64,000 nt of DNA from Candidatus Woesebacteria bacterium (GCA_963749595.1 CAVVNJ010000010.1:65223-129222); one strand, 5' to 3'; shown: positions 7,921-56,589, counted from the first letter of the stretch. Notes: generated from the sequence alone by a model not told the origin. Numbers and translations are program-made.

Positions 7921-8011
7921 GACCAGGTAGGGAACTTCTTGGCCGTTGATAATTCGCGGTTCGCCGTCGGCAAAGTGATAGCGGAGATAATAAAGCGGCG
8001 ACTGACGCTCC

Positions 8012-26256: not shown

Positions 26257-26297
26257 TCATTGTTTTTCTAATAGTTTTATACTACAATTGGGCAACT

Positions 26298-28775: not shown

Positions 28776-29417
28776 GTGCGCAGAAAACCGTCGATTATTT
28801 TCTTATTCATTCTGGTTATTGGACTTGGCTTAGGCTACACATTTCTCCATTCATTTCCGAGAGTTTCGGTAAGGGGAACACAGCCGATTGCTCTACCATG
28901 GAGTGTTCGGGCTGCTGTAGATGTAAAGGATCAGAGCGGAGTAGTACTTTCACAGAAACCCGGATACTACGTTGGTCTGGGTAAGTTTCTGCGGTTATTC
29001 CGTGATAAGAGTGATTATTTGTGGCTATCGACGCTGGTGCCGTTTGGTATTCATAACTACCTGCTTGGTACTGGCGATAGTGTTCCATTTGCCGATGTTG
29101 AGGTTAGTAGGGGTTTAGGTGAAATAACTTATCTCATAAACGATATTAATTACTCATCCATCTCAACTAATGACCTTCAGAGCAGGTTGTCGGTGGGCGA
29201 TACTATTTTGATAGAGATTGCTTTGCCAGAGGAGTCAAATATTGGTACTTATCAGGGTTTTCAGAGTCAATGTACGGATGAAAGATGTCGCGGCTACTTC
29301 GACCTCACTCTTGATGTGGAGAGTAACCGACGAATGATTGAATCCAAAAAAATAATCAAGGAGATTATCTCTCCGGATACGAGACTGATTCTCTCTAAAG
29401 AAGAAGATGAGATTTAA
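28776..29417 (+). CDS. Hypothetical membrane-anchored protein
   Basis: GTG start 6 nt after tggtaagat. N-terminal TM segment IIFLFILVIGLGLGY. Confidence 0.55.
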   Translation: MRRKPSIIFLFILVIGLGLGYTFLHSFPRVSVRGTQPIALPWSVRAAVDVKDQSGVVLSQKPGYYVGLGKFLRLFRDKSDYLWLSTLVPFGIHNYLLGTGDSVPFADVEVSRGLGEITYLINDINYSSISTNDLQSRLSVGDTILIEIALPEESNIGTYQGFQSQCTDERCRGYFDLTLDVESNRRMIESKKIIKEIISPDTRLILSKEEDEI

Positions 29418-30354: not shown

Positions 30355-30915
30355 CCTCTGCTCGTCCAGTACAGCGACAATGGCTCTTCCTGGACTACCC
30401 GAAACGCTTAACTTTGGTGGCGGATGGTCTTCTTAATTCTTATCCTCTAACCGGCAGTGCCGCCGCACCGTACTGGAGGTTGCTGGCCAATTCCAATACG
30501 GCAGTAGCACTCCGTTGGGCAGGTATTATGATTTCGAACTGCGGACTGCCGGCGAAGCTATTTCACCGACTGCCCTTACTCAGGCTGGAACGAGCTATTC
30601 GCTTCGGTGCCGGTGGCGCGGGATTATACGGTTCATGTCCGTTCGACAATACCACTTGCCCACCTACTGATAGCTCTCAGTGGAGTAGTTGGGTCAGTTT
30701 CTGGCGCCGCCAGTACGGTGACCGGAACGGTGTATTATGACGCCACCAATACTGCTAACTTAGTTGGCGGGGTTTGTACCGGAACCGGCTCGGCCTTGCC
30801 GACTGGCGGTGCCAGTGGTGATTTAGCCACAATCGGTGGAGCCCGTAGCGGCGGCGCCTTGGGGCCAATGCCGCCACTCGCGCTTTTGACGACAACAATG
30901 CGACCTACTGGATGA
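30231..30915 (+). pseudogene. Middle part of the same surface protein, readable only by repeated frame changes
   Basis: AKPQNGTAVSGAAWIGQDLG, VTSAR, VQYSDNGSSWTT, TLVADG...APYWRLLANSNT and ...GDLATIGGARSGGALG lie in alternating frames. The last break is in a G4 run at about 30861. Confidence 0.5.
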
Positions 30916-35626: not shown

Positions 35627-36562
35627 TTGGCTCAGAGGATATATTTCCCTAACATGGAAAAATATCAAGAGCTTGGGCTTCCGGAATACAATATTCCTGA
35701 AAATACTGGTGTGATTCAACCACTTGAGGAAGGGATTAGAAGTGGGGAAATATTATTTGAAGGTGATCATTTCTTGGGCGTTTGTGCCGCTCCTCTCCGC
35801 CCCCACACCTATGGAAAACACGATGTCTTGTGGTTTATCTCGAGGGAAACGGGTGCCTTGGCCTCCAATTGGAACAATCTTCTACGGGATGAAGCGTTAA
35901 TTATCCAAATTGAGAAAGCATTTAGTTTACGGCAAGAAAAAGACGTCTCCCTGAGGCTATATTGTCACGATACCGTGCGGTCGATTCGTTATCCCCTAGA
36001 CAGTTCCGTTCTACTTGATAGGAACATTCAAAGTATTCCGCAAGCCCACATGCATATCGCTGAGGGAATCTCTAGCCCGCCGCCAGATCGAGTTTCCATC
36101 ATTGGGGCCGATTCTCCCAATTTTATCTATAAGTTGGCAGTAATTTTTAACCATTCTCAGGAGCTATTTTCAAAATGGTTAGTTGAACACAATGTTGACT
36201 TCGGCAAACCATTCTCGTATATCCAGAAAGTTGGACTGACCAATGCGGTTAGAGTACAGCGGACAGTTTTTGAGTTTGAGTCCCTATTGTTTGCATTAAA
36301 AGGTGCTGATGGACTAAAACAACAACTGGAGCCAATCTGGTACGCATTTGTTGCTTCCTTAGAGGACAACAAATTTTCTTACCCTGAATTGTCGGTTTTT
36401 ATGAAAACCAGCTACTCGCCAAACTTGGCCTTCCTAATTCCAACAGTTAACGATAATCGATTGTACAATCTTGACACACAAAAGACCTATGTTTTTGCCG
36501 GAACGATCTCTTCCCCAGTTGAGTTATTAATGAAAGGCGGCGGATGGCTGAACAGAATCTGA
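35627..36562 (+). CDS. Hypothetical protein with a HIT-like histidine motif
   Basis: 311 aa with IPQAHMHIAEG. Overlaps the start of the downstream guanylyltransferase gene. The start codon is uncertain (TTG 35627 or ATG 35654). Confidence 0.5.
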   Translation: MAQRIYFPNMEKYQELGLPEYNIPENTGVIQPLEEGIRSGEILFEGDHFLGVCAAPLRPHTYGKHDVLWFISRETGALASNWNNLLRDEALIIQIEKAFSLRQEKDVSLRLYCHDTVRSIRYPLDSSVLLDRNIQSIPQAHMHIAEGISSPPPDRVSIIGADSPNFIYKLAVIFNHSQELFSKWLVEHNVDFGKPFSYIQKVGLTNAVRVQRTVFEFESLLFALKGADGLKQQLEPIWYAFVASLEDNKFSYPELSVFMKTSYSPNLAFLIPTVNDNRLYNLDTQKTYVFAGTISSPVELLMKGGGWLNRI

Positions 36563-37662
36563 AGGTATCAAATAATATTTTCGCAGTAATTTTGGCCGGA
36601 GGAGGAGGAACAAGATTATGGCCAGCCTCAAAAGAGAAACTCCCCAAACAGTTTCTGAAACTCAACGGCCCCATCACCATGACCCAGGCAACTATGAAGA
36701 GGCTGTTGCCATTTGTTCCAATAGAAAACATTATCCTTGTGACCAATGAAAAGTACGCGGATGAAATAAAGAGGGAGTTGCCCGAGTTGCTAGAGGACAA
36801 CATAATTTATGAGCCAGAAAAAAAAGACACAGCTCTGGCAATGTTGGTTGGAGCGCTGGTGGCGCGCTCAAGAAATCCGGATGCCGTTATTGTAAATGGC
36901 GCCTGCGACCATATTGTGGAGAATATCGATCTATTTATCAATACCATGAAGGATGCAATCTCTATTGCCAGCAATAGTGAAAATCTTGTTGCCGTCGGAA
37001 TTGTTCCGACAAGACCCGACACTGCGTTTGGATACATACAAAGCGGCAAACCAATAACAGTTAAGGGTATATCACGCAAGATTTACGAGGTTTCCTCATT
37101 TCGTGAGAAACCTGATTATGATGTTGCCAAGGAATATGTTGAAAGCAAACAATATTATTGGAATGCAAACATGTACGTCTGGCATGTTGAGACATTAATA
37201 CAAGCTTTCCACAAATACTGTCCAGATGTGCTAAAAAGGGTTCAACCGATTATTAATGCTGATTTTATCTCCATCAAACAGCATCTTCCGAAGATCTATC
37301 AGGATTTTCCTTCCATCTCAATAGATTATGCCATCAGCGAAAAAACGGACAATCTCTTGCTTATCCCGGGAAATTTCGGTTGGAATGACATTGGCGACTG
37401 GAAAGTAGTATATGATCTGCAGCCACATGATGCTAATGGCAATGCTACGATGCCCAATTGTAGTTCAGATGAAGCCATGTTTATTAACAGCCGGGGAAAT
37501 CTAGTTTGGAACAGTAAAAAGAAGATCGCATTACATGGATTAAACAATCTGGTGGTTGTTGATACTGGCGATGTAATAATGATTTGTAAGAAAGATGAAA
37601 CCCAAAAAATAAAAAAAGTTGTTGAGTTGTTAAAAACACAGGGAAGATTGGAATATCTCTGA
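36544..37662 (+). CDS. manC: Mannose-1-phosphate guanylyltransferase-type sugar nucleotidyltransferase
   Basis: FAVILAGGGGTRLWPASKEKLPKQFLKL and GYIQSG...FREKPD. Confidence 0.85.
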   Translation: MAEQNLKVSNNIFAVILAGGGGTRLWPASKEKLPKQFLKLNGPITMTQATMKRLLPFVPIENIILVTNEKYADEIKRELPELLEDNIIYEPEKKDTALAMLVGALVARSRNPDAVIVNGACDHIVENIDLFINTMKDAISIASNSENLVAVGIVPTRPDTAFGYIQSGKPITVKGISRKIYEVSSFREKPDYDVAKEYVESKQYYWNANMYVWHVETLIQAFHKYCPDVLKRVQPIINADFISIKQHLPKIYQDFPSISIDYAISEKTDNLLLIPGNFGWNDIGDWKVVYDLQPHDANGNATMPNCSSDEAMFINSRGNLVWNSKKKIALHGLNNLVVVDTGDVIMICKKDETQKIKKVVELLKTQGRLEYL

Positions 37663-37668
37663 TCAAGA

Positions 37669-38307
37669 TCAGTACGAGGACAATACGTTTCCAGAAACAT
37701 TCTCTTTTTCTTTGCCTACGGCATAGGCGCTATGTTCCAAAAATAGCCAGGTATGAAAGTCAGACAAGGTCGAAATCCTTCTTATCTTTTCTTCAAGCTT
37801 TTTAACGCTTTCAGCCTCTCTACCTTTTCTTTCCCGCAGCACTTCTTCGCTGATACCAATGTTCTCTGAAGTAAGGAAGTCAAGTTCATACCCATCATTC
37901 GGAGTCAAGCCAAATACCCATTCGAAAGCCGCTTTGGTCCTAGCCATATGAAATTCCGAGGTGATGACTAATAACCGTTTTAAATTTCTTGGATCGGTGT
38001 GAATAACTCTGGCGAAGTAGGCGTTTCCGATGGTATCGTAGGAAGAAGTTTCCAATAATATTTTTTCAGGGCTGATACCCCGGCTGGCTAAATAATATGC
38101 CGCTGCTTGTGATTCAAAAATGGGAAAACCCTGTGGGTTCAGCGGTGGTGCTTTGTGGGTAGTGCCCGCGCTCAAGGTAATGAAAAATGGATTCTCGCGG
38201 TTACTTTTTAGTGCAAGTTCTAACCTTGCTTTGGTCCATTCCGGCAAACCACCTTTGTCTGTCAGACCACCACCGGGTATAAGAATTGCCTGATATTCTT
38301 TCCTCAC
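37669..38307 (-). CDS. YdcF/DUF218 family protein
   Basis: ILIPGGGLTDKG...LLVITSEFHMARTK. Confidence 0.75.
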   Translation of the reverse strand: MRKEYQAILIPGGGLTDKGGLPEWTKARLELALKSNRENPFFITLSAGTTHKAPPLNPQGFPIFESQAAAYYLASRGISPEKILLETSSYDTIGNAYFARVIHTDPRNLKRLLVITSEFHMARTKAAFEWVFGLTPNDGYELDFLTSENIGISEEVLRERKGREAESVKKLEEKIRRISTLSDFHTWLFLEHSAYAVGKEKENVSGNVLSSY

Positions 38308-38373
38308 ACCATCATCTTATCATAACTATAATTAATCCCCGCCAACAACGTCTTGATTTGTTTTTGATGCCTT

Positions 38374-39444
38374 TCAAAAGCCGTGAGTTTTGGATTTCTT
38401 GCCTCCTTTTTCAAAATAAGAAATTAAATGTGGGTCTATTAATTTGCCTCTTTTTTTCATCAAAAGCAACCTTCTTAATTTGCCCCTCAGAATTTCGGAT
38501 TGGTAAAAAGGACGGATATATCCTAAACGGCTTAATTGGCCAAGCACCGTCTCCGCCTCTTTAAACTGACCTAATATGTCCAAAGATCCAGAAATTCCCT
38601 CAGTGATGGTTGCCACTCTATCGTTGGAAAAGCCGATTTTCTCTACCAACAGTTGAGCTTTGTTAATCGTTATAAATAATTTGTCCTTGTCATTCCGGTG
38701 TGCATATGAAAATAGCAGCATTCGAAATAGCTCTGATTTTGTGACATCGTCTGCAGAATCTATGATATTTTCAGCATAATCAATTACTTTTTGCCATTGA
38801 CTAGTGGCGTAATAGTTCGTGACCACATTTAAATGGGTAAGATTAATTATTTCATTATCTTTTGTTGCTTCTCCAATGCTTAAGGTTTTTTCATTGTATG
38901 ATCTTGTGGCCTCAATAATATCTTCTCCCGTGCTGATGTCCGATAATATCTTTGCCTTTTCAACACAAATATTTCCATAGACTCCGATAGCCCCGGAACA
39001 TCTCGATGACAAGTCAGTTTCAAAAAGATTTTCGTAATACTCTGCCACTATAAAAGCGTTATGGATGTCACCACCCTCTCTAAGTGATCTGATAATCTTT
39101 GGTGCCATGGGAATCATATCGCCGTTTATTACCACCAAACACTCGTTGGCTTGTTCCTCGCAGAAGCCTTTTTTGGTTAATAAGTCCCGCATGAGACTTT
39201 CCCTAAGAAGAATGGCGTCAATTCTGGAGATTGCCAATATCTTGCAAAATGAATTAAGCTGTTTTTGACTGAAAATCCTCTTCCCATTTATCACTTTTGA
39301 CAAAATGCTAGGATCCATATCCCCAAAACCAAGATCCTCCATCATTTCCAGAGATAATTTATTGAGGGAGCTTCCGTTAATAAACACAATTCTATTGCCA
39401 ACTCTTTTATAATATCTTTGCAATAAATTATGTAGCTTTTTCAT
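38374..39444 (-). CDS. Putative HTH regulator with a long helical-repeat C-terminal domain
   Basis: AT-rich 356-aa ORF. The N-terminus DPSILSKVINGKRIFSQKQLNSFCKIL is XRE-HTH-like. The rest is predicted all-helical by eye. Confidence 0.55.
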   Translation of the reverse strand: MKKLHNLLQRYYKRVGNRIVFINGSSLNKLSLEMMEDLGFGDMDPSILSKVINGKRIFSQKQLNSFCKILAISRIDAILLRESLMRDLLTKKGFCEEQANECLVVINGDMIPMAPKIIRSLREGGDIHNAFIVAEYYENLFETDLSSRCSGAIGVYGNICVEKAKILSDISTGEDIIEATRSYNEKTLSIGEATKDNEIINLTHLNVVTNYYATSQWQKVIDYAENIIDSADDVTKSELFRMLLFSYAHRNDKDKLFITINKAQLLVEKIGFSNDRVATITEGISGSLDILGQFKEAETVLGQLSRLGYIRPFYQSEILRGKLRRLLLMKKRGKLIDPHLISYFEKGGKKSKTHGF

Positions 39445-39548
39445 TATCTTTAATTAAATAAATATCTGAATCTTACATCAAAATCAGGTAGGAGTACACT
39501 AATGGTTGCGATAGTTTGATCGATAGTGATCTGATTAAATAGAAAAAT

Positions 39549-39611
39549 ATGTTTGGATTAGCCTTATTGATTGATCTGATTGCAGTTACCAACGCGATTT
39601 GCTCGCCTTAG
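39549..39611 (+). CDS. Possible 20-aa hydrophobic peptide ORF divergent from the regulator
   Basis: MFGLALLIDLIAVTNAICSP. The tgattaaat box at 39532-39540 lies 8 nt before the ATG, matching the window's leaderless spacing. Confidence 0.25.
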   Translation: MFGLALLIDLIAVTNAICSP

Positions 39612-39652
39612 TCCAATAGAAACAATCAATAAACGCTTCCCAGAAATTTATG

Positions 39653-39735
39653 TGCCGGCTGAAGGATTCGAACCTACGTAGGCTATTGCCAACAGATTTA
39701 CAGTCTGTCCCCGTTGACCGCTTGGGTAAGCCGGC
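39653..39735 (-). tRNA. tRNA-Tyr (GTA)
   Basis: Acceptor GCCGGCT/AGCCGGC, anticodon loop cTGTAAa, long variable arm, and T loop TTCGAAT with one U-U mismatch in the T stem. No encoded CCA. Confidence 0.85.
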
Positions 39736-39789
39736 GATAGGGCAAATTATAGCATGATTTTTCTCGAGAAAATTGGTTCCCTAGTCGCC

Positions 39790-40176
39790 TTAACGATTAT
39801 TTGGCTTAGGTTTGATTCTTTGAACCAGACTATGGGCAAATAGCATCATGATGTCGATCCGGCCCAGTTCCAAAAAAAGCGCTTCCAAGGAGCGGGCATT
39901 TTTCTGATCGCGGTAATTTCCGGCAACACTTTCCAAAGCATCAAGGTCGACAACAACTTCCTCTTTACCGACCGAAACTTTCATTTGCGAGCCATGCTGC
40001 TCCCGCAGTTCGGCGATCATTTTATTGACCGTCTCCCAGGCAGATTCAACTCCCGTTGTTTCCGGCTTATGTTCGAAATCCGGGACCGGGAGAACTTCTT
40101 TCAATCGGGTGTTATGGGAAACCACCAGCCGGCCAAAACCTTCGGCAATCGTGGATTGATCTTTTCTTTTTCTCAT
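39790..40176 (-). CDS. Hypothetical protein
   Basis: 128-aa ORF with no recognised motif. Confidence 0.55.
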   Translation of the reverse strand: MRKRKDQSTIAEGFGRLVVSHNTRLKEVLPVPDFEHKPETTGVESAWETVNKMIAELREQHGSQMKVSVGKEEVVVDLDALESVAGNYRDQKNARSLEALFLELGRIDIMMLFAHSLVQRIKPKPNNR

Positions 40177-40897: not shown

Positions 40898-41028
40898 CCT
40901 ATATTATTTACTATTTTGCCAAAATCGAGTAAAATTTCCAGGCCAGACCAGTGAACATCGCGTTCTCCAGGTCGGGCATGAACAACTAGCTGTTATCGTC
41001 CGCTTTAGTGCCATAAGGAGGATTTCTC

Positions 41029-41190
41029 ATGGCAACCGTAACCGTAGTAGAAGGTGATATTACCAAAGTCGAGTCTGACGCGATCGCGACCCTCGCCAAC
41101 CCGTTTGGCATGTGGTTCGGCGAAGTGAAGTTGGTGATCTACGACAACCCGTCGCAGGCTGCCCGCTTCCGCGCGCTGCTTGGCAGCTAG
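41029..41190 (+). CDS. 53-aa ORF resembling the N-terminal strand/loop of a Macro domain (possible remnant)
   Basis: An aaggagg RBS lies 7 nt upstream. MATVTVVEGDITKVESDAIATLAN.. then diverges. Absent from the ORF track because it is under 60 aa. Confidence 0.45.
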   Translation: MATVTVVEGDITKVESDAIATLANPFGMWFGEVKLVIYDNPSQAARFRALLGS

Positions 41191-41232: not shown

Positions 41233-41634
41233 TTAACGGTCCTTTATTTTCTTCCAGGTGGACATCAATTTTTGGTCGAAACTCCATAATTCCAGAGATT
41301 CTGATTTTGCTCTGGCCAACAAGAAACAATCGGCGAATGACTCAGAAAAAATATCAAAATATTCGAGTGCTAATGCCAGGGTTTTTCGATCAAAAATATT
41401 TATGTACCCAGCAGACAAAAGCGCGCGCAATTTTTTGATAGCTTGTGCTTTAGGAAATCCATAATACTTGTTTAGAATATATTCTGTTTCAAAAATACTA
41501 ACTGAATCGACTACCACGTTGATAGTGCCCGATTGAGCCTTTTGAAAGATTGCCTGGGCCTCTTTGGTCTGGGCGGGCACGTCGGCCAAAAGGAAACGAA
41601 GCAAGATATTTGTGTCGGCCAAAATGGTTTTCAT
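41233..41634 (-). CDS. vapC: PIN-domain toxin VapC
   Basis: ILADTNILLRFLL...ETEYIL...FADCFLLA, the acidic PIN signature. Confidence 0.85.
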   Translation of the reverse strand: MKTILADTNILLRFLLADVPAQTKEAQAIFQKAQSGTINVVVDSVSIFETEYILNKYYGFPKAQAIKKLRALLSAGYINIFDRKTLALALEYFDIFSESFADCFLLARAKSESLELWSFDQKLMSTWKKIKDR

Positions 41635-41882
41635 TTCTCATTCAACATGTCTTCGATCACGCCCTGGGCAAATAAATCATGAATTTGCTCGTTAGACAAA
41701 GGCTTTTTATTGGTGTGAAGGCTGCCTTTTAAATCGAGCCAGTTTTCCACCGGCGTAATCACTATCTTTCCCTTCTCTAGGGACAGCGCAACCTTGCCCT
41801 TTAACGGAATGCCCAGCTTGCGGCGCATTGCGGCGGGGATACTTAACTGTCCTTGAGAGGTTATCGATACCATCGCGACCAT
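41631..41882 (-). CDS. vapB: AbrB/SpoVT-type antitoxin VapB
   Basis: SQGQLSIPAAMRRKLGIPLKGKVALSLEKGKIVITP. Overlaps vapC by 4 nt. Confidence 0.8.
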   Translation of the reverse strand: MVAMVSITSQGQLSIPAAMRRKLGIPLKGKVALSLEKGKIVITPVENWLDLKGSLHTNKKPLSNEQIHDLFAQGVIEDMLNEK

Positions 41883-41913
41883 CCATTAATCTTAAAGTAT
41901 TTCATTACTTTTA

Positions 41914-42246: not shown

Positions 42247-43387
42247 GTGACCTGGTTGCGTCGATTCTGGCCTTACTTGCTGTTTGCGATCATTGGATTG
42301 CTGGTCTATTTTCCGACCTTTCAAAACGGTTTCGTTTGGGATGATGAGGAGCAAATCGTGCTCAACGAATCGGTCCATACGCTCCAAAATTGGCCGCGGC
42401 TGTTCCGCGGTTCGACTTTCAATGCCGGTGGCGCCACATCTCTCGGGCGGACTGTACTACAAACCACTGATGATGCTGACTTACGCCGTTCTCTATGGAC
42501 TGGCCATCGGCGAAGCCAGTTGGTTTCATGGTTTTCAATTATTACTCCACATCGCCAACGCCGGTTTATTCTTTGCCTTGCTGGTTTGGATTTTCCAAAG
42601 AACGTCGCCCATCCATCGTCTTGGTCGATCGCAATTACTTGTTTTGTGGTTCTTGGCCGCCGTGTTTTTGGTCCACCCACTCAACGTTGAGGCCGTGGCT
42701 TATATTGCCAGCCTGCAAGACGTGCTGGCCATTTTCTGGGGATTGCTGGCGGTGAATATTTTGTTCCGCCGATCAACAACCGTTGGGAGTTATCTTATCG
42801 CCGCGATTTTCTTATTAGCCGCGCTATTTTCCAAAGAAACCGGGGCACTTTTTGTCGTGATGGCCATTCTCGGCACGGTGTTATTTTCCCGAAAAAAAAG
42901 GTCGATCCACGCGGTCGGAGCGATCGGAATAGTAGTGGCAATTCTATATTCTTGGTTGCGCTTCGGCGTGGCGCAGTTGTATTTTCAAGCGCACGGACTA
43001 AGCCCGATTACCCGTATCGGTCTGGGTCAGAGATTGATCAGCCTGCCAAAAATTCTTGGGTTTTACGGCCGGACTTTTATTTGGCCCGATCATTTAGTGA
43101 TTGCACAGCATTGGTTGGTGGCAGATTTTTCGCCGGTCGATTTTTGGCAGCCATTACTCATTATTTTATTTTCACTCGCGATTTTCGTTGGGTGGCTGCG
43201 CCGCACCGGACGGTATCGCGAACCGCAACTGATCTTCTTTTTGTTATGGTTTTTTCTTGGCCTGGGTTTGCACGCCCAGATTTTTCCGCTCGACATGACC
43301 GTAGCCGACCGTTGGTTCGCGTTTCCGATGCTGGGACTTTTGGGACTGGGGGCAGTTATTGCTTGGCCGGCAATCGATCGGAATTAA
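42247..43387 (+). CDS. Polytopic PMT/TMTC-like glycosyltransferase-type membrane domain (frame break at about 42437-42450)
   Basis: LVYFPTFQNGFVWDDEEQIVLNESV, then GGLYYKPLMMLTYA in the next frame, followed by many TM helices. Confidence 0.65.
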
Positions 43388-43970
43388 GCGGCCGGTAATC
43401 AAATGGTTCTGGCTGATTATCGGTTTGATTGTTTTGTTGGCGCTGGGGTCGCGCAGCTGGTTCCGGGTTCAAGTCTGGCGGGATAGTCTGACCCTTTACA
43501 GCCAGGACATTCAACAAAATCCGGACGCTTTTGACTTAACGAACAATTATGGAGTGGCGCTCTACCGAGCTGGTCGTGAGGAAGACGCGCTGGGCGCTTT
43601 TCGCCGCTCAACGGAAATTGCGCCTGACTGGTGGACCAACTGGAACAATTTAGGCGCCATTCAAGAGCAGCCGGGGCAAATCGATCTGTCCCGGCAGTCG
43701 TACCAAAAGGCGATCGATAAAGGCCAGTATTATTTGGCTTATGAAAATCAGGCGAACTTGTTGTTTAACCATTATCCGGAAGAGGCAATTGCGTTTATCG
43801 AGGAGACTTTGCCGGTTCTGCCCTACAATTTAAAACTCTGGCATTTGTATATTTTGGCCTTGGAAAAACAGGGCCGGATTCAAGATTCGTTGCGAGTGGC
43901 TCAAGAGCTGGCGAAGCGAACGGGGCAGACTCCGTTTACCGAGTTGTACCAGAGACTGAAAACTTTATGA
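43359..43970 (+). CDS. TPR-repeat C-terminal part of the same protein (frame break at about 43380-43390)
   Basis: TM segment, then NNYGVALYRAGREEDALGAFRRSTEIAPDWWTNWNNLGA (TPR). Confidence 0.65.
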   Translation: MLGRQSIGIKRPVIKWFWLIIGLIVLLALGSRSWFRVQVWRDSLTLYSQDIQQNPDAFDLTNNYGVALYRAGREEDALGAFRRSTEIAPDWWTNWNNLGAIQEQPGQIDLSRQSYQKAIDKGQYYLAYENQANLLFNHYPEEAIAFIEETLPVLPYNLKLWHLYILALEKQGRIQDSLRVAQELAKRTGQTPFTELYQRLKTL

Positions 43971-43987: not shown

Positions 43988-44000
43988 ACGTAGCATTGTT

Positions 44001-44071
44001 AGGGCTATGATGTAACGGTAGCATGAGGGTCTCCAAAACCCTTCGTCTAGGTTCAAATCCTAGTAGCCCTG
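44001..44071 (+). tRNA. tRNA-Trp (CCA)
   Basis: Acceptor AGGGCTA/TAGCCCT, anticodon loop cTCCAAa, T loop TTCAAAT. No encoded CCA. Confidence 0.9.
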
Positions 44072-44124
44072 CTGACTATTGAATACCCATTGACACCTGT
44101 TGCTTATATGCAACAATATCCTAA

Positions 44125-44436
44125 GTGAAAAAGATTGTCGAAATCGACGAAAGGGCTAGTAAGGAACTCAGAACCTTCTCTCCAGAAATCCAAGCTAGAT
44201 TCGTCGCTCTGTTCGGCATTTTAGGTCAAGAAGGTTTTCTCAAGGAACCGTTTGCCAAGCGGCTCGATGACAAACTCTTTGAGGTTCGAGTCAAACATGA
44301 AGGACAGTGGCGAGCGGTTTATGCCTACGTCGATAAAAATAAAGTAATTATTTTGTCGGCCTTTCACAAAAAGACGCAGAAAGCGCCGAAACAAGAATTA
44401 AAGAAAGCCGAAAAACGTTTACAGGAGTATTTATGA
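44125..44436 (+). CDS. Gp49/HigB-like RelE-superfamily toxin
   Basis: FSPEIQARFVALFGIL...LFEVRVKHEGQWRAVYAYVDKNKVIILSAFHKKTQK. Confidence 0.75.
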   Translation: MKKIVEIDERASKELRTFSPEIQARFVALFGILGQEGFLKEPFAKRLDDKLFEVRVKHEGQWRAVYAYVDKNKVIILSAFHKKTQKAPKQELKKAEKRLQEYL

Positions 44437-44720
44437 AGAAACAACCAAAAACCATCTCGATTAAAGAATTTTCTCAGGGATTTAGCCAGGAACAAAAAAG
44501 AATCGTCGAAGAAGAAACCCGATTTTATTTTTTACTGACTTCTTTCAAAGAAGCCAGGGAAAAGAAGGGTTTGTCTCAGGAAGAACTGGCTCGAAAGGCC
44601 AAAGTGAACCGTACTACCCTCAGCAAAATCGAGTCCGGTCTCCGCAATGCGACGATCGACACTCTAGATAAGTTGGCGACAGCCATGGATATGAAGCTGG
44701 ATGTTAGATTGAGGGCTTAA
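44433..44720 (+). CDS. XRE-family HTH antitoxin (HigA-like)
   Basis: KGLSQEELARKAKVNRTTLSKIESGLRNATIDTL. Overlaps the toxin by 4 nt. Confidence 0.8.
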   Translation: MKKQPKTISIKEFSQGFSQEQKRIVEEETRFYFLLTSFKEAREKKGLSQEELARKAKVNRTTLSKIESGLRNATIDTLDKLATAMDMKLDVRLRA

Positions 44721-44797
44721 TTTTCCGAAGTAGTTCCAACACGCTTCATTAGTCCCCACAACAGCCAAACTAATTTTTCTTTGCTATCATAGCCGCA

Positions 44798-45136
44798 ATG
44801 ATTCTAACTAAATCGCAACCATTTTCGCTTGAGGAAATCGAACAGTTAAAAGAACAGTTCGAGGTTTACATTAAAACGGTTATTGATGTGGAAAAGAAAG
44901 TTTGTTCGGCCGGCATGGATCGACATTTTGAGGGTGAAGAAATCCTATTGGGTCAAGGTTCAAAACAGAGTGATGTTTGGGGTGGTGGAATCGATATCGA
45001 GACTAAGGAGATAGACTTTAACTCACTGATCAATGTTCGACCCAGGGATAACAATTCCAAAAACGAAATCCAGAACGAAACTATTAGAGGGCAATACAAA
45101 AAGCTGACCGAATATTTTTTCCAGAAATTATTATGA
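44798..45136 (+). CDS. Small conserved hypothetical protein (possibly DUF5674-like)
   Basis: 112 aa. The tgctatcat box lies 7 nt before the ATG. The family name is from memory only. Confidence 0.5.
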   Translation: MILTKSQPFSLEEIEQLKEQFEVYIKTVIDVEKKVCSAGMDRHFEGEEILLGQGSKQSDVWGGGIDIETKEIDFNSLINVRPRDNNSKNEIQNETIRGQYKKLTEYFFQKLL

Positions 45137-45411
45137 CTGACACATCACTATTGGCGGGATCACTTTCCAACGACCTTTTTCGGGTAGTTAATCTGCAGCA
45201 GCGGGGCTCGATGTTGGCCGCACAACGTTTTTTACAAGAGGCTAAGCGCTGGTCCGGACCGCTGGCGAAAAAAGCGGATAAGAAATACATCCGCACTATT
45301 GCCGAGCACATCAATCTAGCTGATCCGGAAGAAACAATGTCGATGGCTGAAATAGAAAAATATCTGATGTTTGGGGTTTTGTTACAGAATTACACGCTAC
45401 ATAATGCGTAG
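45133..45411 (+). CDS. Hypothetical protein
   Basis: 92-aa ORF with an ATGA overlap with the upstream gene. Confidence 0.5.
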   Translation: MTDTSLLAGSLSNDLFRVVNLQQRGSMLAAQRFLQEAKRWSGPLAKKADKKYIRTIAEHINLADPEETMSMAEIEKYLMFGVLLQNYTLHNA

Positions 45412-45483
45412 ATTCCAATACGTTCCACCAGTCCCGCTAAGCGACTATTTTCCATAAGATCTCCGCTCGGGTATGATGGACAC

Positions 45484-46095
45484 ATGGCAAAAACAAGAAT
45501 TCTTGATACCTCGTTAACAAGCCTGATTTTTCTATCCCTATTTTTTATTTCAGGAGTCGGTTTTGGATTGATTGCCAGAGGATCTTTTTGGCAGCAAAAA
45601 AACAGCGCGGCGGAGTCCGCCCAATCTGCGCCGGAAGAAGTAGTTCTAAATTCCGACTTAATTTACCAAAATGACGAATATGGTTTTTCATTACAATACC
45701 CGGAGGGGTCAATAATCGATACTGCGCCTAATCGGGATCGTATCCTGAAGATCGAGCCTCCGGCAGAATACACTCTTGCCGAAACTCAACTAACTATTCG
45801 GACCTTGGCAGAGCCCTTTGGCGAGTCTATCAATCGACTCATCAAGCAAGATAAACAAGAGGCGAGCAATAATCTATATACCGGTGTGTTAGTTGCCGAG
45901 ATTGATGGCCTACCAGCGAAGAGATTTTATACCATTGTTTGTCCAGAAAGAGGCAGTTGTGAAAAAACGAATAAATATTATGTCAATGCTCAGGGAATCA
46001 CTTATATAATTACCACGACAACTTTTGTGGACGGAGGCAATACTTCAATTAACGAGGATGCAACAGAAAGAATAGTTAATTCTTTAGACCTTTAG
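45484..46095 (+). CDS. Hypothetical membrane-anchored protein
   Basis: TM segment LIFLSLFFISGVGFGLI, then a YQNDEYGFSLQYP domain similar to that of 40238-40897. Confidence 0.6.
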   Translation: MAKTRILDTSLTSLIFLSLFFISGVGFGLIARGSFWQQKNSAAESAQSAPEEVVLNSDLIYQNDEYGFSLQYPEGSIIDTAPNRDRILKIEPPAEYTLAETQLTIRTLAEPFGESINRLIKQDKQEASNNLYTGVLVAEIDGLPAKRFYTIVCPERGSCEKTNKYYVNAQGITYIITTTTFVDGGNTSINEDATERIVNSLDL

Positions 46096-50418: not shown

Positions 50419-50502
50419 GAGTTAATTCTAGAGATTATTTTCGGTGGAGACAACCCAAATAAAGGGCGTAACTCCTGATTGGATTTTTCACGACCATCTT
50501 CA

Positions 50503-50968
50503 CGAGTTTGGGATCTATATCTCCCCAGCGATTTGCCTCCCAAACTGTCCCCTCCAGAGACCTCTAATTACTCCTAAAGGTGACCCCAAACAGGTCCTAA
50601 TTCAAACCTTATGGGCAATAGAGGTCCAGTACTAGGTTAGTTTGAGTCCACCTGGGCAAACAAGGGCCATTTAGAGACCGTCGATCGGTCAAAAACCAAA
50701 GATACTGTCAGGATGAACTAGATTGCATAGTAGTCGATAAGCGGTTAGTACAACAGTTAATTGAACCCGCTAATGGGAACCATTCGCCCATTCTTGACCC
50801 TGATTTGCCCGTCGTGGCCAAGAAGGCACCGGGAACTGACCCTTTTTAACCCAAAGGTCCGTTATTGCACCCCAAGCAACCCTAAAATAAGACCTGTTCG
50901 GGGTGACTTTGGGGGACAGTTTGGGAGGCAAAATGCTGGGAGGGTATATATCCCCAGCCATAAACTCG
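50503..50968. repeat. Copy C of the long inverted-repeat intergenic element (best-defined, MITE-like)
   Basis: The left end is cgagtttgggatctatatctccccagcgatttgcctcccaaactgtcccc. The reverse complement of 50912-50968 is cgagtttatggctggggatatataccctcccagcattttgcctcccaaactgtcccc. Confidence 0.7.
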
Positions 50969-51111
50969 ACCATCCGGCTCCATACAAGTTTCAGGACTGA
51001 TTTCTATGTACTATTGTTAGAGGGTTGAAGCATAGTAAGATGCTTAGCATGAGCAAACCGGAACATCGTCGGGACTAATCCTTGACGATACCGGACTTAG
51101 GAGAACTTAGT

Positions 51112-51564
51112 ATGCGCCCTCTCGAAAACGATCGGTCCCCGGCGTCGGGAGCGGAGTTCCTCCCTTATTATTTCGTCGTTGACAGCGATATTAGGTCGGT
51201 TATCGATCAGCTTGAAAATCAACATCCAGAATTCACCCATAACAGCCATAGAGTGGGCCGGGTTGAAACATTCTGGTTCAGCAACGCCGAGGACGAGAGG
51301 AATTTTGAAGAGGCATTGCTAAAAAATGGCGTCGATTTTGAAAAAGAGTTTCGCCCATCCTATTTCTTGCTCAACTCGGAAAGTGCCCGGATGGTAAGCA
51401 ACGCCCTTTGGTCGGAGGATGATGATTTTGGCATTAATTCTACTCAGCAAGGAAACCAAGAAGTTCTCTGGGTCAAAACTCCTGATGCTGAGCGGCGGCT
51501 ACGGGCGAAACTTCGCGAGCTGCGGGTAAATGCGGATATTCGCGACTTTAACCCGCTTCAATAA
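51112..51564 (+). CDS. Hypothetical protein
   Basis: An aggag RBS lies 9 nt before the ATG at 51112 (the ORF opens at 51082). Confidence 0.55.
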   Translation: MRPLENDRSPASGAEFLPYYFVVDSDIRSVIDQLENQHPEFTHNSHRVGRVETFWFSNAEDERNFEEALLKNGVDFEKEFRPSYFLLNSESARMVSNALWSEDDDFGINSTQQGNQEVLWVKTPDAERRLRAKLRELRVNADIRDFNPLQ

Positions 51565-51574
51565 GTCGTTGAGT

Positions 51575-51879: not shown

Positions 51880-53122
51880 CTACAGTTTAGCACCGGCCGA
51901 GACTTCGATTTCCCGCCGCAAACTTAAGCTGGCTAAAGCGCCGGCCAAGAAACTCAGGAAGACTAATGTCCAGTTCCAGCCGACCAGGAGCAAAATAATT
52001 CCCAGGGAAAAACCAAAAACCAAAGTTGAAGACAGTATGATTTCCCGATTGGCATAAAAAGCAAAGACGTTGTGCTGCCTCGATCGGAGTAACAGGGTGG
52101 CTGAAAACAAGGTGCCGTAAACGCTGGAGAGTAAACGATCAATCGTCTCGGTTACGACTAGCGCCAAGGGAATCTGGGCGAAAAAGACACGTGGCAACCA
52201 GAGAAGCCCCCAAAAAGCCCCGGCCGTAGCCTGAAGCCGGGACACCTTCCGGCCATCGAAAGCTAATCCGGAAAGGTAAACCAAAAGTAGGGAAAAGAGG
52301 GTCGCGCCGGAAAGAATGTAGCTGACTGTGGAGATCCGACCAAAGGTGACGAACAAGAACACCGGCCAGAGAACGTTCAACCCAATCTCTTCCCAGGCAT
52401 AACCAGCAATGCCCAGCACCAGGGTGCGGTCAGTCCGATGGCGAAGCATTTCCCAAAAGTCGGACCAATGCCAACTTAGATTGGTGCGGAAATTGGGGAT
52501 AAATAACAAAAGCACCGCTGACGCCGCTGCTAAACCCGCGCCGGTCAAGAAGACGCTCAAGTAGCCAAAATTCACCACCAGCCAAGCGGCCACCAAGGGA
52601 GCCGTGACCAAGGCTAGCTTGCTGACAAATTCCAACACGCCAACTTCTTCGCCGGCGTGTTTAGGTTTGGCCACCGAGGTGAAATAGGAAAAGTGACCGG
52701 TCCAGTACAGAAATACGCCGATTCCCTGCAAAATAGCCGCTACCGGAAAAAGCCAGGGAAACGAACGGATAAAAGGAAAGAGACAGAGAAAGGCGATGCG
52801 GAAAAATTGGCCGACCATCATCGCGTGACTCATTCCCAGGATTCGGAACAACGCCGATAGCGGTTGTGCCAGGACTAGAACCGTTACACGCTCGAGTAAA
52901 TAAAACAACAAAACGGCCAACAGGCCCGCTCGCAACGGCTCGGTGAAAAATCGAGTAATGAAAGAATAGCTCCCGACCGAATTCAAATAGTGCAACCGGG
53001 GTGGCAATGACTAGCAAGGCATCAGCCGCGCGCAGGGCAAAACTATGGGTGTAAAAACCCTTCAGTTCTTTGGGTAGAAAATGCGGGCGCAGGTGAAATT
53101 GAAGCGGGAAGCGGAGGGGCAT
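51880..53122 (-). CDS. MFS-type transporter with a frame break near its 5' end (about 52985-53007)
   Basis: Two overlapping ORFs (51880-53007 and 52661-53122) jointly give a roughly 12-TM protein. Confidence 0.6.
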
Positions 53123-53127
53123 AGCCT

Positions 53128-53705
53128 TTACTCTAGCACGACGTAGGGCAACTCCTCGGATAGAGTAATGATGGTCTTTTTGATCGCGGCGGTTTCTTCG
53201 TTGCTAAGGGATTGGAGAACGTACGCCTGACCGGGAATGGTACGTTGGCCGCCTCGACTATCGACGCCGATACGCGCCACCCAAAACTGATTGGTGTTCA
53301 GGTGTAGCGCAGACTATTGAGACCGTTGTGTATCTTCGGTCCGGAGTCGAACTGCAGCTTGTATTGTCCGGAGGTCAAATCGAGATCGTCGTGGAACACG
53401 ATCAGGTTCGGGGTAGGGTTCGCAATCCGTGACTGGGATCGCGGTGTAAGTACCAGCGCGCCGCGGCGGCGACGGAGCGGCCGGATTCGTTCATGAACGT
53501 TTGTGGTTTGAGCAAGATCAGCTCGTCGCCGCCGCGGCGCAACCGCAAAACCTCGGCCTCAATTTTTTTCTCCATTTTCCATTCCAATTTAACGTTGGAT
53601 CGGACCAAAGTCGGACCAGTTCGTCGAGCGCCAGCCAGCCGACGTTGTGGCGGGAGCGGTGATAGGCATCACCCGGATTGCCGAGGCCAACCAGGAGATA
53701 GCGAC
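53128..53705 (-). pseudogene. pth: Peptidyl-tRNA hydrolase, at least 3 frame changes and no clear start codon
   Basis: [46 protein letters not shown]...HNGLNSL and ARIGVDSRG...EETAAIKK lie in different frames. Confidence 0.7.
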
Positions 53706-54890
53706 TCAGATTTCCTCCTCGTCGGATTGCTGATAGGAATCAATGGCGCTGCGGTAAACCTTTTCGTATAACGGAATTAATCGGTCGGGGTGAAAACGTT
53801 GGGCCTGGTCAAAGGCTTTTTGCCGCAAAGGGGCAAGATCTTTCTGACTAATGGCGATCATCTTTTTGGCCACCGCCGCGACGGCCTTTTCCCGATTAGC
53901 GGTGTCCGGAACCAATAAACCGGCGGAGCCGACCAGCTCGGTGTTGGCCCGCGAGGCTAAGGCAATGACTGGCAGTTGGTGGGCCATTGCCTCCGGGGTG
54001 GTATAGCCAAAAGTTTCAAACCGGCTCAGCGTCACGAAAACGTCGCCCTGGTGATATAACCGCTTGGTAATTAATTCATGATGTGGGATTTTGCCGAACC
54101 AGCGAATTGCATCACTAATCTTTAGTTCCAAGCTCAGCGCGAACAGAGCTTGCCGTTCCGGACCGTCACCGATAATTACCAATTCCGCGTCTGGCAGTTT
54201 CTTTTTAGCCAGGGCAAAAGCGTGGATTAGTAAATCAACCCGCTTTTCCGGACTGAGCCGGCCGACAAACAAAAATGATTTTGCCCGCGGGTTATGGCTG
54301 GGGTGCTGGGCAAAGCTTTCCGGGGACAAAGGGTTGGAGCAAACGATAATCGGCTCCGGGGTTCCATGTTCGCGGAGATCGCTGGCCACAAACTGAGAGG
54401 GAGCAATCGTGGCGTCGCACCACCGGCTGAGAACGCGGTTCAGCCGCCAGCCACCTTGGCTGATAATCCGGGCCAAGCGGGCGTTGCGAATTCCGATGAT
54501 TTTCATGGCTTCTTCGTCCATGAAGTAGGTGTGAAAGGTCTGAATTAGCGGTATTTTCAATCGTTTGCTAACGAGAAATCCTTCCAATCCAACACTGAGT
54601 GGGGTATGAACATGAACGACTTCCGGTGAAAATTCCTTGATGTCATTGAGGAATAAGGGCAGACTGGTACCCAGCCTGAAATCGGGGTAAATCACCACGT
54701 CGACTGATCTCACATATTTAACCGTCACGTTAGGATGCAAAAAACTGAGATCGACCGGCTCTTTGGGACTGGGCGCCTGCACGAAAACCTGGTGCCCGGC
54801 CTCGGCGAGCGCGTTAGCTAGAATTATCACCGCCGTGGCCACGCCGCTGACAATCGGATAAAAAGCGTCGGTATACATGGCGATGCGCAT
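53706..54890 (-). CDS. GT4-family glycosyltransferase
   Basis: [21 protein letters not shown] and ...[20 protein letters not shown]. The ORF is intact. Confidence 0.85.
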
Positions 54891-54914
54891 AGTTCTCTAT
54901 ACTATAATACCTCT

Positions 54915-56150
54915 ATGACTTGGCAGAGCGAGGTAATTCGTCAGGATTTTCCGATTTTATCCCGACAGGTTCATGGGCAGCCATTGATTTATCTCGATAA
55001 CGCGGCCACGACGCATAAACCGGAGGCGGTGATTGGAGCGATCAGCGATTACTATCGTCACCACAACTCGAATGTCCACCGCGGGAGTTCATACGTTGGC
55101 CGATGAGAGCACGCAGATTTATAGCGAGGCCCGGCGAGACGATCGCCGGTTTTTTTGGGGCGACAGCCGGAAGAATTGATCCTGACTCGCAACGCGACCG
55201 AGGCGCTCAACCTGGCCGCGCTGGGCTGGGGTCGGCAATGGGTTGAGGCCGGGCGACGCGATCGCGGTCACGATCATGGAGCACCACAGCAACTTTGTCC
55301 CCTGGCAGGAGTTGGCGCGGGAGAAGGGCGCTCAGTTCGTGGTTTTGCCGTTGACGGACGACGGTCGTTTAGACCAGACGGCCGCGCTGCAGATTATGGA
55401 TGAGTTAGGCGACAAATTAAAGGTCCTGGCGCTGACCCACGTTTCTAATACTTTGGGCACGGTCAACCCGGTCGAGAAGATCACCGCTCATCTTAGTCGA
55501 AAATCCTGGCGTTCCCGCGTGCTGGTCGTCGCCGATATTGCCCAAAGCGCGGCTCGCATTCCCCTTTCCTCGATTGCTCTGGGCGTCGACGCTCTGGCTT
55601 TCTCCGGTCATAAGATCTATGGTCCGATGGGCATTGGCGGTTTAATTGTTCAACGCAAGTCGATTGGCAGAGTTCCAACCGGTTTTGTTTGGCGGCGGCA
55701 TGATCGGCCGCGTCGGCGAATCCGAGACCACCTTACGCCGAGGATCTTCAGGATCGTTTTACCGCCGGAACTCCTGATGTAGCCAGCGCGGCCGGTCTGG
55801 CCGCCGCCTTCGACCTACTGAACAAAATTGGTCGGAGGCCGTTTTGGTCCACGAGCAGGAAATCACTCAGTACGCCTACGAGCAGCTTAGTCGGTTGCCG
55901 GAAATCGAGTTGGTCGGTCCCCAGCCGGACGCCGGACGACTCGGCTCAGTCGCTTTCCTGTATAAAGGAGTGCATGCCCATGACGTGGCTCAGATTCTCG
56001 ACCGCTCCGGGGTGGCGGTTCGCTCGGGTCATCACTGCACGATGCCACTGCATACTGTATTGTGGCTGGCCAGCGACCACCCGCGCCAGTTTTGCGATTT
56101 ATACCACAGCCGAGGAAATCGATGCGCTGGTGGCGGCGCTGATCAAGTAA
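54915..56150 (+). pseudogene. sufS: Cysteine desulfurase SufS-type, at least 8 frame changes
   Basis: LIYLDNAATTHKP, TRNATEALNL, IMEHHSNFVPW, LTHVSNTLGT, FSGHKIYGPMGIGG, FTAGTPDVA and RSGHHCTMPL are spread over frames 0,1,2,0,1,2,0,2,0. Confidence 0.8.
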
Positions 56151-56171
56151 AAAAGGTATTCCGACATTAAT

Positions 56172-56589
56172 ATGGACGATCTTTACCGGGACCACATTCT
56201 AGATCATGCCGAAAATCCCGCCGCGAGGGTAAGTTTGCCCCATCCCACCCACACCGGCAGTTATGGCAATCGCTCCTGCGGCGACGAGATCGACCATTGA
56301 TCTAGAGATTATTGACGGCCGAATCATCGCGGTTCGTTGGCGCGGCGAGGGTTGCGTGATTAGTCAAGCGGCGGCCAGTTTGCTAGCCGAGGAAATCGAA
56401 AATCTGCCGATTGAAGAAGTATTATCCTGGGAAGATGACGCGGTGCTGGACGAGCTCGGTTTGCCGGAGGTTTCTTACGCCCGCCGGCCTTGCGCTCTGA
56501 CGTTTATCAATACCCTCCGCCACATCCTGAGGGTCAGACCCTCCAGGCGTGAGGGTACCCCAGGGTCAGACCCTCAGGAGGAAGGGTGA
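56172..56589 (+). CDS. sufU: SufU/IscU-type Fe-S scaffold, one frame break at about 56292 and a repeat-encoded C-terminal tail
   Basis: MDDLYRDHILDHAENP...GNRSCGDEI, then (+1) TIDLEIIDGRIIAVRWRGEGCVISQAAAS. Confidence 0.7.
56527..56578. repeat. REP-like element (variant core GGGTCAGACCC, two copies) forming the 3' end of the sufU ORF
   Basis: ctgagggtcagaccctccaggcgtgagggtaccccagggtcagaccctcagg. Confidence 0.65.

Follow-up and report, generated by a model that had tools for sequence, protein, structure and literature searches.

Long-read metagenome assemblies are known to suffer from frameshifts caused by small indels, chiefly in their low-depth members (bioRxiv 10.1101/2021.08.23.457338), and the frameshift problem is among the matters discussed for Nanopore MAGs (PMC9262707). 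In curated bacterial pseudogenes, insertions account for 43 % of indels, about one-third of deletions are 1 nt long, and indel sizes follow a power law (PMC6054270).

We analyzed a 64,000-nt stretch, referred to below as the window, of a 176,697-nt contig from a Patescibacteria (CPR) MAG deposited in NCBI/ENA, in which MFS, pth, sufS, and sufU are all frame-broken between 52.96 and 56.29 kb. The 15 lesions found there are almost certainly consensus errors of this one assembly and not mutations of the organism.

Gene layout and single-base lesions

On one strand, the locus carries lgt, a cupredoxin gene, the MFS gene, pth, and the GT4 gene; on the opposite strand lie sufS, sufU, an ITPase-like NTPase gene, and dockerin and cohesin surface-protein genes. 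In three relatives (L001, L002, and L003), all genes broken here were intact and their order was identical. Scans of GTDB species representatives and of JGI metagenomes yielded distant relatives only. Beneath the breaks lies a CPR gene cluster of an ordinary kind, conserved and functional. Pfam matches were obtained for MFS_1, Glycos_transf_1/Glyco_transf_4, Aminotran_5 in three separate ORF pieces, NifU_N in two pieces, and NTPase_I-T, and Pth was identified from tblastn and solved structures. The genes and patches concerned are as follows.

51880-53122, minus strand: MFS transporter gene, 413 aa after repair (tblastn with the L001 MFS, alignment, repair)
52960-53592, no strand: error patch 1, five single-base indels in ~630 nt (alignment, repair)
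53128-53709, minus strand: pth, peptidyl-tRNA hydrolase, 193 aa after repair (alignment to L001, repair)
53706-54890, minus strand: GT4 glycosyltransferase gene, uninterrupted, 394 aa (Pfam Glycos_transf_1 and Glyco_transf_4; tblastn)
54915-56170, plus strand: sufS, type II cysteine desulfurase, 416 aa after repair (three-frame translation, alignment to L001, repair)
55083-56293, no strand: error patch 2, ten single-base indels in ~1210 nt (alignment, repair)
56172-56589, plus strand: sufU, sulfur-transfer scaffold gene, 138 aa after repair (Pfam NifU_N over two ORFs, alignment, repair)

Indels were called by DNA alignment to L001, the closest syntenic relative. All 15 that break a frame are exactly 1 nt long (11 insertions and 4 deletions). 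In the MFS gene, one extra base within 52960-52976 cuts the first ~52 codons off the remainder; tblastn with the L001 MFS placed residues 1-52 in frame -1 and residues 54-413 in frame -2, in agreement with the split 5' end reported in the preliminary description. The alignment of pth revealed a -1 at ~53592, a +1 at ~53436, a +1 at ~53406, and a -1 at ~53304, and these four lesions amount to three net frame changes, matching the earlier minimum of three. The nine lesions of sufS comprise seven insertions (~55083, 55138, 55162, 55244, 55667, 55735, and 56061) and two deletions (~55836 and ~56141). Three-frame translation reproduced exactly the path 0,1,2,0,1,2,0,2,0 described before; the count of at least eight changes holds and is refined by the ninth lesion at ~56141, which produces an apparent early stop, the true end being 56170. 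One extra base is present in sufU within 56288-56300. The preliminary description had named a g at 56292; a single extra base is indeed present, but enumerated repairs do not fix which one, because deleting any of several neighbors restores the frame.

The same description regarded the region as a local hot-spot that spares the GT4 gene, which our results confirmed. No frame-breaking lesion was found in GT4 or in ~7.6 kb of flanks, the indel-free gap of at least 1491 nt among 15 sites is beyond chance (P = 0.006), and the density was 8.2 indels per kb in the two patches versus none in the 7.6 kb of comparable flank. Residues 1-390 of the 396-aa L001 protein matched GT4 (394 aa) in a single frame by tblastn, and the NTPase gene (yjjX in the earlier naming) and the 1.7-kb dockerin gene aligned with L001 over their full length, all three being uninterrupted as first stated. 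All 15 lesions fall outside runs of at least 4 nt, and two long runs within the broken genes, T7 (~55150-55156) and A7 (~53563-53569), are in frame. The claim that breaks fall outside homopolymers thus stands for runs of this length, but about half of the lesions lengthen or shorten a run of 1-3 nt.

The hot-spot is local and statistically real, but it is not unique. At least seven further frameshifts were found outside the flagged region, giving at least 22 frame changes in the 64 kb overall, and insertions made up 15 of 19 indels when other window sites were counted. The additional genes are as follows.

6253-8590, minus strand: leuS, leucyl-tRNA synthetase, +1 insertion at ~8015 (Pfam tRNA-synt_1 split over two ORFs)
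9571-10120, plus strand: bPH_2 membrane protein gene, +1 frame change at ~9780, predicted from the window sequence alone
29407-32357, plus strand: gene for a large Cys-rich secreted protein with an F5/8 type C domain, at least three frame changes at ~30.2-30.9 kb (homologue matches, profile)
42259-43967, plus strand: TPR / PMT-like membrane protein gene, two +1 frame changes, at ~42445 and within 43380-43415 (match to P0122)

In leuS, positions 1-178 of the tRNA-synt_1 profile lie in ORF 8012-8590, and positions 184-409 together with the editing and anticodon domains lie in ORF 6253-8022. The transmembrane N-terminal part of the bPH_2 protein and its bPH_2 domain occupy successive frames. The F5/8 domain of the secreted protein begins at profile position 14 with the first residues of ORF 30864-32357, and full-length homologues (700-840 aa) match frames 1, 3, 1, and 3 successively; the interval 30.2-30.9 kb is therefore a second cluster of frame changes. 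Three successive pieces of P0122 (590 aa) matched the TPR gene: residues 12-74 (frame 1), 73-395 (frame 2), and 409-590 (frame 3).

Repaired proteins and selective constraint

Fifteen one-base corrections yielded ORFs free of in-frame stops. The repaired lengths equaled those of L001 for MFS (413 and 413 aa), Pth (193 and 193 aa), and SufS (416 and 416 aa). Repaired SufS was 81 % identical to P0001 and aligned end to end with solved SufS/CsdB structures (E = 6e-108), with the PLP lysine (SGHK) and the catalytic Cys (SGHHC) aligned with those of 4w91 and 5xt5. In unrepaired sufS, the Aminotran_5 profile was recovered in pieces (positions 1-35, 86-221, and 279-350), and only after repair does the gene encode a full-length type II cysteine desulfurase. 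Likewise, repaired Pth aligned end to end with solved Pth structures, and the features of PF01195 (GLGNPG, the catalytic His in HN, the Asp of DDLDL, and a length of ~190 aa) come together after repair only. Repaired SufU has its cysteines and carries a 15-aa C-terminal extension that is absent in L001 and made of a duplicated palindromic 13-mer.

Compared with L001, the broken genes had dN/dS values of 0.07-0.14 and intact neighbors had values of 0.04-0.16; this pairwise measure is limited in power by saturated dS (1.1-2.9), and lineage-specific tests are the sensitive ones. With L002 as outgroup, window-specific and L001-specific amino-acid changes numbered 74:58 in broken genes and 65:49 in intact genes (Fisher P = 0.90). 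SufS alone showed a mild excess of window-specific changes (28 vs 13, uncorrected P = 0.028). Among the positions conserved in at least 90 % of 40 homologues, repaired SufS deviated at only 2, and intact homologues deviated at 0-4. The broken genes match intact genes in dN/dS, relative-rate, and conserved-site tests, with no sign of relaxed selection.

Independent assemblies and competing explanations

Logan contigs from runs ERR12037366 and ERR15459711 served as independent assemblies and were compared via gene tables (ORF lengths, spacings, and neighbors); no paper mentioning either run accession was found. In these contigs, the h100, NTPase, VapC, and Gp49 proteins are 100 % identical to those of the window, and the intergenic spacings are identical. 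The MFS gene is 1242 nt long in them (413 aa) versus 1243 nt in the window, and the SufU gene is 417 nt long (138 aa) versus 418 nt. Over its last 228 codons, sufS keeps a single frame and stops 1 nt before sufU. The frame of Pth is open from M46 onward; the spacing from GT4 to M46 is 131 nt versus 130 nt in the window, and that from M46 to the stop is 447 nt versus 448 nt. The differences in length and spacing are exactly the ±1 nt predicted by the repairs. Eleven of the 15 lesions were covered, namely all except the four in the 5' part of sufS (55083-55244), and at those eleven the independent samples of this lineage did not reproduce the disruption. The breaks are assembly errors, since the genes are whole where the same strain was assembled independently. 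Contigs retrieved through proteins next to the other frameshifted genes (four were looked up) ended before the broken gene.

An exact-match look-up of 19 candidate repaired proteins (MFS, SufU, Pth from M46, and the C-terminal part of SufS) found none, and the independent ORFs therefore differ from these repair variants by at least one residue. This difference reflects either substitution errors in the patches or strain SNPs. The lengths, the spacings, and the identical neighbors nevertheless suggest that the independent ORFs are nearly identical to the repairs.

Patchy consensus error was one of three possibilities raised in the preliminary description, and it is strongly supported: the indel spectrum is unlike that of real pseudogenes, the lesions are absent from the independent assemblies (11 of 15), a 1-nt repair suffices, and unrelated genes, including essential ones, are affected. 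As for the cause, we infer that the patches are stretches where a noisy consensus stayed uncorrected. Two patches, of ~0.6 kb and ~1.2 kb, flank GT4, with another at 30.2-30.9 kb and isolated errors in the leuS, bPH_2, and TPR genes. The sequence there may derive from a long-read consensus, a gap fill, or a bridge unpolished by short reads, or alternatively from a pile-up in which co-occurring strains were mixed up. Since insertions are in excess and long homopolymers are spared, the errors seem to stem from indels introduced at random and not from miscalled homopolymers.

We found no sequence feature that explains the patch positions among GC, tetramers, and the identity profile. Local GC (0.57 at the indels vs 0.53 in the region) was too weak a candidate, as other bins of equal GC were clean. 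GATC, a methylation-type motif, lies within 6 nt of 6 of the 15 indels and was the best of 136 tetramers (raw P = 0.0015, ~0.2 after correction), and it was rejected as well. Identity to the relative along the locus had no distinctive profile at the patches.

Mis-assembled strain variation, the second possibility raised, is an artefact of a different cause, in which collapsed reads of at least two close co-occurring strains yield spurious single-base indels. We regard it as possible, at odds of a minority explanation. The errors are patchy and not uniform, the same population is present in at least two public read sets, and the residue-level offset from every simple repair means that substitutions, true or erroneous, accompany the indels. 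However, the sequence does not mark the patches as more variable, their identity to the relative and their dS being ordinary, and the Logan contigs are unbroken at the patch borders.

The third possibility, real and very recent pseudogenization, holds that the lineage truly inactivated pth, sufS, sufU, and MFS, plus leuS and others, perhaps as a degenerating or complementation-dependent subpopulation beside an intact one. We consider this very improbable. The deposited sequence does contain broken ORFs, a search of the 64-kb window for further copies of pth, sufS, and sufU found none (a weak test for a ~1 Mb genome), and the excess of SufS changes noted above points in the same direction. CPR bacteria are host-dependent and have reduced genomes, which would also suit gene loss. 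Against this, lesions that are all 1 nt long and mostly insertions are the opposite of the bacterial deletional bias. Compared with the pseudogene spectrum, the insertion excess gave P = 0.018 (11/15) and P = 0.0016 (15/19), and the restriction to 1 nt gave P of 3e-5 or less. Bacterial mutation spectra contain roughly ten substitutions per indel, so nine neutral indels in sufS should have brought dozens of substitutions; instead, in-frame stops are absent, conserved residues are kept, and substitutions are not in excess relative to intact neighbors. Pth and LeuRS are essential, single-copy functions, and leuS is also frameshifted. Finally, assemblies with identical flanks carry intact genes. 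Of the marks of a pseudogene, disruption relative to functional orthologues is present, and a neutral spectrum and relaxed selection are absent. Decay of SUF and Pth is thus contradicted by the healthy repaired genes, the indel spectrum, the intact independent versions, and leuS, and pseudogenization is already largely refuted. We give scarcely any credence to its fullest form, in which a defective episymbiotic CPR lineage lost pth, sufSU, and leuS via a burst of single-base insertions and survives beside a flank-identical, intact sister population.

A much weaker novelty, more likely than the lesions being real, is that only the start of pth is truly unusual. The preliminary description saw no clear start, and the start position (53707-53709) indeed reads CTG, overlapping the GT4 stop as CTGA, where five of five relatives have ATG. 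This codon is the only candidate for a real oddity at the locus; if real, it would imply termination-reinitiation coupling on a non-canonical codon.

Recoding, by which programmed ribosomal frameshifting, transcriptional slippage, or RNA editing would read through the frameshifts in vivo, has practically no chance of being correct: the repaired proteins look functional, but one gene would need nine shifts in both directions, slippery heptamers and long homopolymers are absent at the sites with T7 and A7 in frame, and no relative has the shifts, nor, which refutes it, do independent assemblies of the same strain.

The flagged feature holds no new biology, and the genes are intact in the organism. 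Its value is one of caution. Read at face value, the record describes a CPR bacterium without Fe-S assembly genes, Pth, or leucyl-tRNA synthetase, and a metabolic reconstruction or pseudogene census built on it would be wrong. Single-base, homologue-guided repair recovers the proteins from a record whose frame-breaking errors are concentrated in patches.

Comparison with described systems

The repaired locus resembles the SufS-SufU pair of the Gram-positive-type SUF system (5xt5, 4w91): SufS aligns end to end (E ~1e-98 to 1e-108) and has both the PLP lysine and the catalytic cysteine, and a NifU_N/SufU gene with its cysteines follows directly after sufS. Unlike that system, the locus has sufS and sufU only, with no sufBCD within the window, and its SufU bears the 15-aa C-terminal extension.

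True pseudogenes of reductive evolution, such as those of leaf-nodule Burkholderia symbionts (PMC6054270), likewise have several frame-breaking indels per gene and intact neighbors. In those pseudogenes, however, deletions outnumber insertions, sizes follow a power law, stop codons occur, and constraint is relaxed, whereas the broken genes here have lesions that are all 1 nt long and mostly insertions, lack stops, and are as constrained as intact neighbors.

The lesions also resemble artefacts of long-read or poorly polished metagenome assemblies, the problem that protein-guided correction such as proovframe addresses (bioRxiv 10.1101/2021.08.23.457338). There, too, conserved and essential genes are split, one-base protein-guided correction works, and other assemblies of the organism lack the indels; here they amount to at least 22 frame changes in 64 kb. 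The window differs from them: Nanopore consensus errors are dominated by long homopolymers, whereas those of the window avoid them and favor insertions, and the window errors are strongly clustered, with ~8 per kb in two patches versus 0 in 7.6 kb.

Frame-breaking indels in the MFS-sufU cluster

The gene cluster at 51.9-59.8 kb has the following order, sufS being divergent from MFS, pth and GT4.

First three genes, minus strand: MFS transporter, pth, GT4 glycosyltransferase
Then, plus strand: sufS, sufU, NTPase_I-T (YjjX-like) gene
Last, plus strand: dockerin/TIG surface-protein gene, cohesin-like gene

The window comes from a Patescibacteria (CPR) genome, and the best SufS homologues were those of Patescibacteria, Pacebacteria and Woesebacteria MAGs. 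The closest relative fetched was L001, a JGI contig of 9.4 kb; its SufS has 81 % identity to the SufS obtained after correction of the lesions. Two more distant relatives, L002 and L003, share this gene order exactly. All cluster genes are intact in the three relatives (3/3), and the protein lengths in relatives are 413/407 aa for MFS, 193/191 for Pth, 396/395 for GT4, 416/417 for SufS and 123/126 for SufU. Nucleotide alignment to L001 located 15 lesions in MFS, pth, sufS and sufU, each of a single base.

Lesions per gene, from alignment to L001
MFS and sufU: a single insertion each
pth: four lesions, two of them insertions and the others deletions; also CTG at the start and not ATG
sufS: nine lesions, seven of them insertions and the others deletions

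The succession of frames through sufS given in the preliminary description was reproduced by three-frame translation. The second sufS deletion, at ~56141, produces an apparent early stop, and the true end of the gene is at 56170. The single insertion in sufU was also found, but the g at 56292 to which it had been attributed is not necessarily the extra base, which may be at any place in 56288-56300.

GT4, the NTPase gene, the dockerin gene and the whole of 49.7-52.9 kb are in a single frame relative to L001. The local hot-spot sparing GT4 that had been noticed earlier represents real clustering, with P = 0.006 for an indel-free stretch of at least 1491 nt among 15 sites. Lesion density was 8.2 per kb in the two patches (52960-53592 and 55083-56293), compared to 0 in 7.6 kb of comparable flank. 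Many of the breaks had been described as lying outside homopolymers; none of the 15 is within a long run, and the T7 run of sufS and the A7 run of pth stay in frame.

Independent assemblies and repaired genes

Independent assemblies of runs ERR12037366 and ERR15459711 (Logan contigs) were reached by exact-sequence look-up of intact window proteins, and were compared with the window by gene tables, not DNA.

Logan assemblies compared with the window
MFS gene: Logan 1242 nt (413 aa), window 1243 nt; on a contig with an identical 100-aa protein adjoining MFS
Pth ORF, Met46 to stop: Logan 447 nt, window 448 nt
GT4 stop to Met46 codon: Logan 131 nt, window 130 nt
sufU: Logan 417 nt (138 aa), window 418 nt; on a contig with an identical NTPase
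sufS, last 228 codons: Logan a single ORF that stops 1 nt short of sufU, window five lesions

The remaining gene lengths and intergenic spacings agreed to the nucleotide. Each difference had the value predicted from the one-base repairs, and 11 of the 15 lesions were covered; the remaining four lie in the 5' portion of sufS, where the Logan contigs leave a gap. These lesion-free assemblies of the same strain are the decisive line of evidence against pseudogenes. The lesions are a property of this assembly and not of the organism. Exact look-up of 19 candidate repaired proteins in the protein collection gave no match (0/19), and the intact Logan ORFs therefore differ from the repairs by at least one residue, a difference that additional substitution errors inside the patches, or strain SNPs, could account for.

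After the 15 one-base corrections the ORFs were free of stops; MFS, Pth and SufS matched their L001 orthologues exactly in length (413, 193 and 416 aa), and SufU reached 138 aa through a C-terminal extension. Repaired SufS and Pth aligned over their full length with solved structures, and both had the catalytic motifs. The dN/dS ratio against L001 ranged from 0.07 to 0.14 in the broken genes and from 0.04 to 0.16 in their intact neighbours, a test that is weak by itself because dS is saturated. With L002 as outgroup, window-specific to L001-specific amino-acid changes numbered 74:58 in broken and 65:49 in intact genes (Fisher P = 0.90). At sites with 90 % or more conservation in a set of 40 homologues, repaired SufS deviates only twice, and intact homologues 0-4 times. 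Given bacterial mutation spectra, nine neutral indels in sufS should bring many times more substitutions. The broken genes thus bear no trace of relaxed constraint.

The pth start position (53707-53709, minus strand) reads CTG, its C corresponding to the plus-strand g at 53709, and overlaps the GT4 stop as CTGA; ATG is present there in five of five relatives (L001, L002, L003, L004 and L006). In the Logan assemblies, the gene caller begins Pth only at Met46, though the upstream spacing is in frame, which indirectly suggests that the canonical ATG is absent there too. The missing ATG may be real, in which case initiation would be non-canonical or coupled. The 3' end of sufU (56528-56580) has ~45 extra nt relative to L001, giving 15 in-frame residues; the near-palindrome AGGGTCAGACCCT occurs twice in it (0.05 expected per window by chance). 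Since the 138-aa SufU is also found in the Logan assembly, the extension is real and possibly represents a small repeat element.

Frame changes and other features elsewhere in the window

Lesions of the same type were observed in four further genes.

6253-8590, minus strand: leuS (leucyl-tRNA synthetase), two ORFs, +1 insertion, junction ~8015
9571-10120, plus strand: bPH_2 membrane protein, +1 at ~9780, between the transmembrane part and the PH domain
29407-32357, plus strand: Cys-rich secreted protein with F5/8 type C domain, at least three shifts at 30.2-30.9 kb
42259-43967, plus strand: TPR/PMT-like membrane protein of ~585 aa, two +1 shifts at ~42445 and 43380-43415

In leuS, an essential gene, positions 1-178 and 184-409 of Pfam tRNA-synt_1 are in adjacent frames. 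Homologues of the secreted protein have 700-840 aa, and a GC-rich 0.7-kb stretch of its gene is a second error cluster. The full-length homologue P0122 of the TPR/PMT-like protein maps to frames 1, 2 and 3 successively; the protein has FVWDD and YYKPL motifs, and its middle fragment is the 321-aa protein P0121 of the source record. Over its 64 kb the window has 22 frame changes or more, which, occurring in unrelated and partly essential genes, fit an assembly error process rather than selection or decay at a single locus. The hot-spot is a true local concentration, yet not the sole site of such lesions.

Several other features were observed in the window.

26250-26812, plus strand: small toxin-antitoxin-like pair; second ORF weakly similar to YafQ toxin (E = 1e-4, below gathering score)
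36000-40000: low-GC stretch adjoining tRNA-Tyr (39652-39735), with a nucleotidyl-transferase (ManC-like) gene, a DUF218 gene and unknown genes
41017-41187, plus strand: 53-57-aa ORF resembling a macro-domain N terminus (MATVTVVEGDITKVESDAIA...), Pfam match none
41233-41634 and 41634-41885, both minus strand: VapBC, PIN toxin and MazE/AbrB-type antitoxin
44000-46000: low-GC stretch adjoining tRNA-Trp (44001-44072), starting with a Gp49-like toxin and HTH antitoxin pair
~50450-51570: ~1.1 kb without counterpart in L001, between a cupredoxin gene and the 100-aa gene

The two low-GC stretches (0.39-0.43 compared to ~0.51) may be acquired islands. The macro-domain-like ORF ends early and adjoins the VapBC module. 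Since a 53-aa ORF is also called at this position in the Logan assembly, the macro-domain-like ORF probably represents a genuine gene remnant rather than an assembly error. The ~1.1-kb stretch contains an orphan ORF of 160 aa (51082-51564; Pfam match none), called as 150 aa on the Logan contig, and ~0.65 kb without a convincing ORF.

Origin of the lesions and comparison with pseudogenes

Patchy consensus error, one of the possibilities raised in the preliminary description, is accepted as the explanation with very high confidence. The patches probably represent noisy consensus left uncorrected, for example where depth was low, where long-read bridges or gap fill were used, or where strains were mixed in the pile-up. 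Such errors are well described in long-read metagenome assemblies (bioRxiv 10.1101/2021.08.23.457338; PMC9262707). No intrinsic sequence cause was found for where the patches lie: local GC, distance to GATC and resemblance to relatives were all weak or non-significant. Real decay of SUF and Pth, also proposed earlier, is rejected on the combined evidence of repair, constraint, indel spectrum and the Logan assemblies, and the flagged region is no real biological feature. Simple homopolymer miscalling is argued against by the insertion bias and the spared homopolymers.

Curated bacterial pseudogenes have more deletions than insertions (396:300); their indel sizes follow a power law, and only about one third of the deletions are of 1 nt (PMC6054270). 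The lesions described here differ from that spectrum both in their uniform 1-nt size (15/15; P 3e-5 or less) and in their excess of insertions, which account for 11 of the 15 (P = 0.018), or 15 of 19 once the other orientable window sites are added (P = 0.0016).
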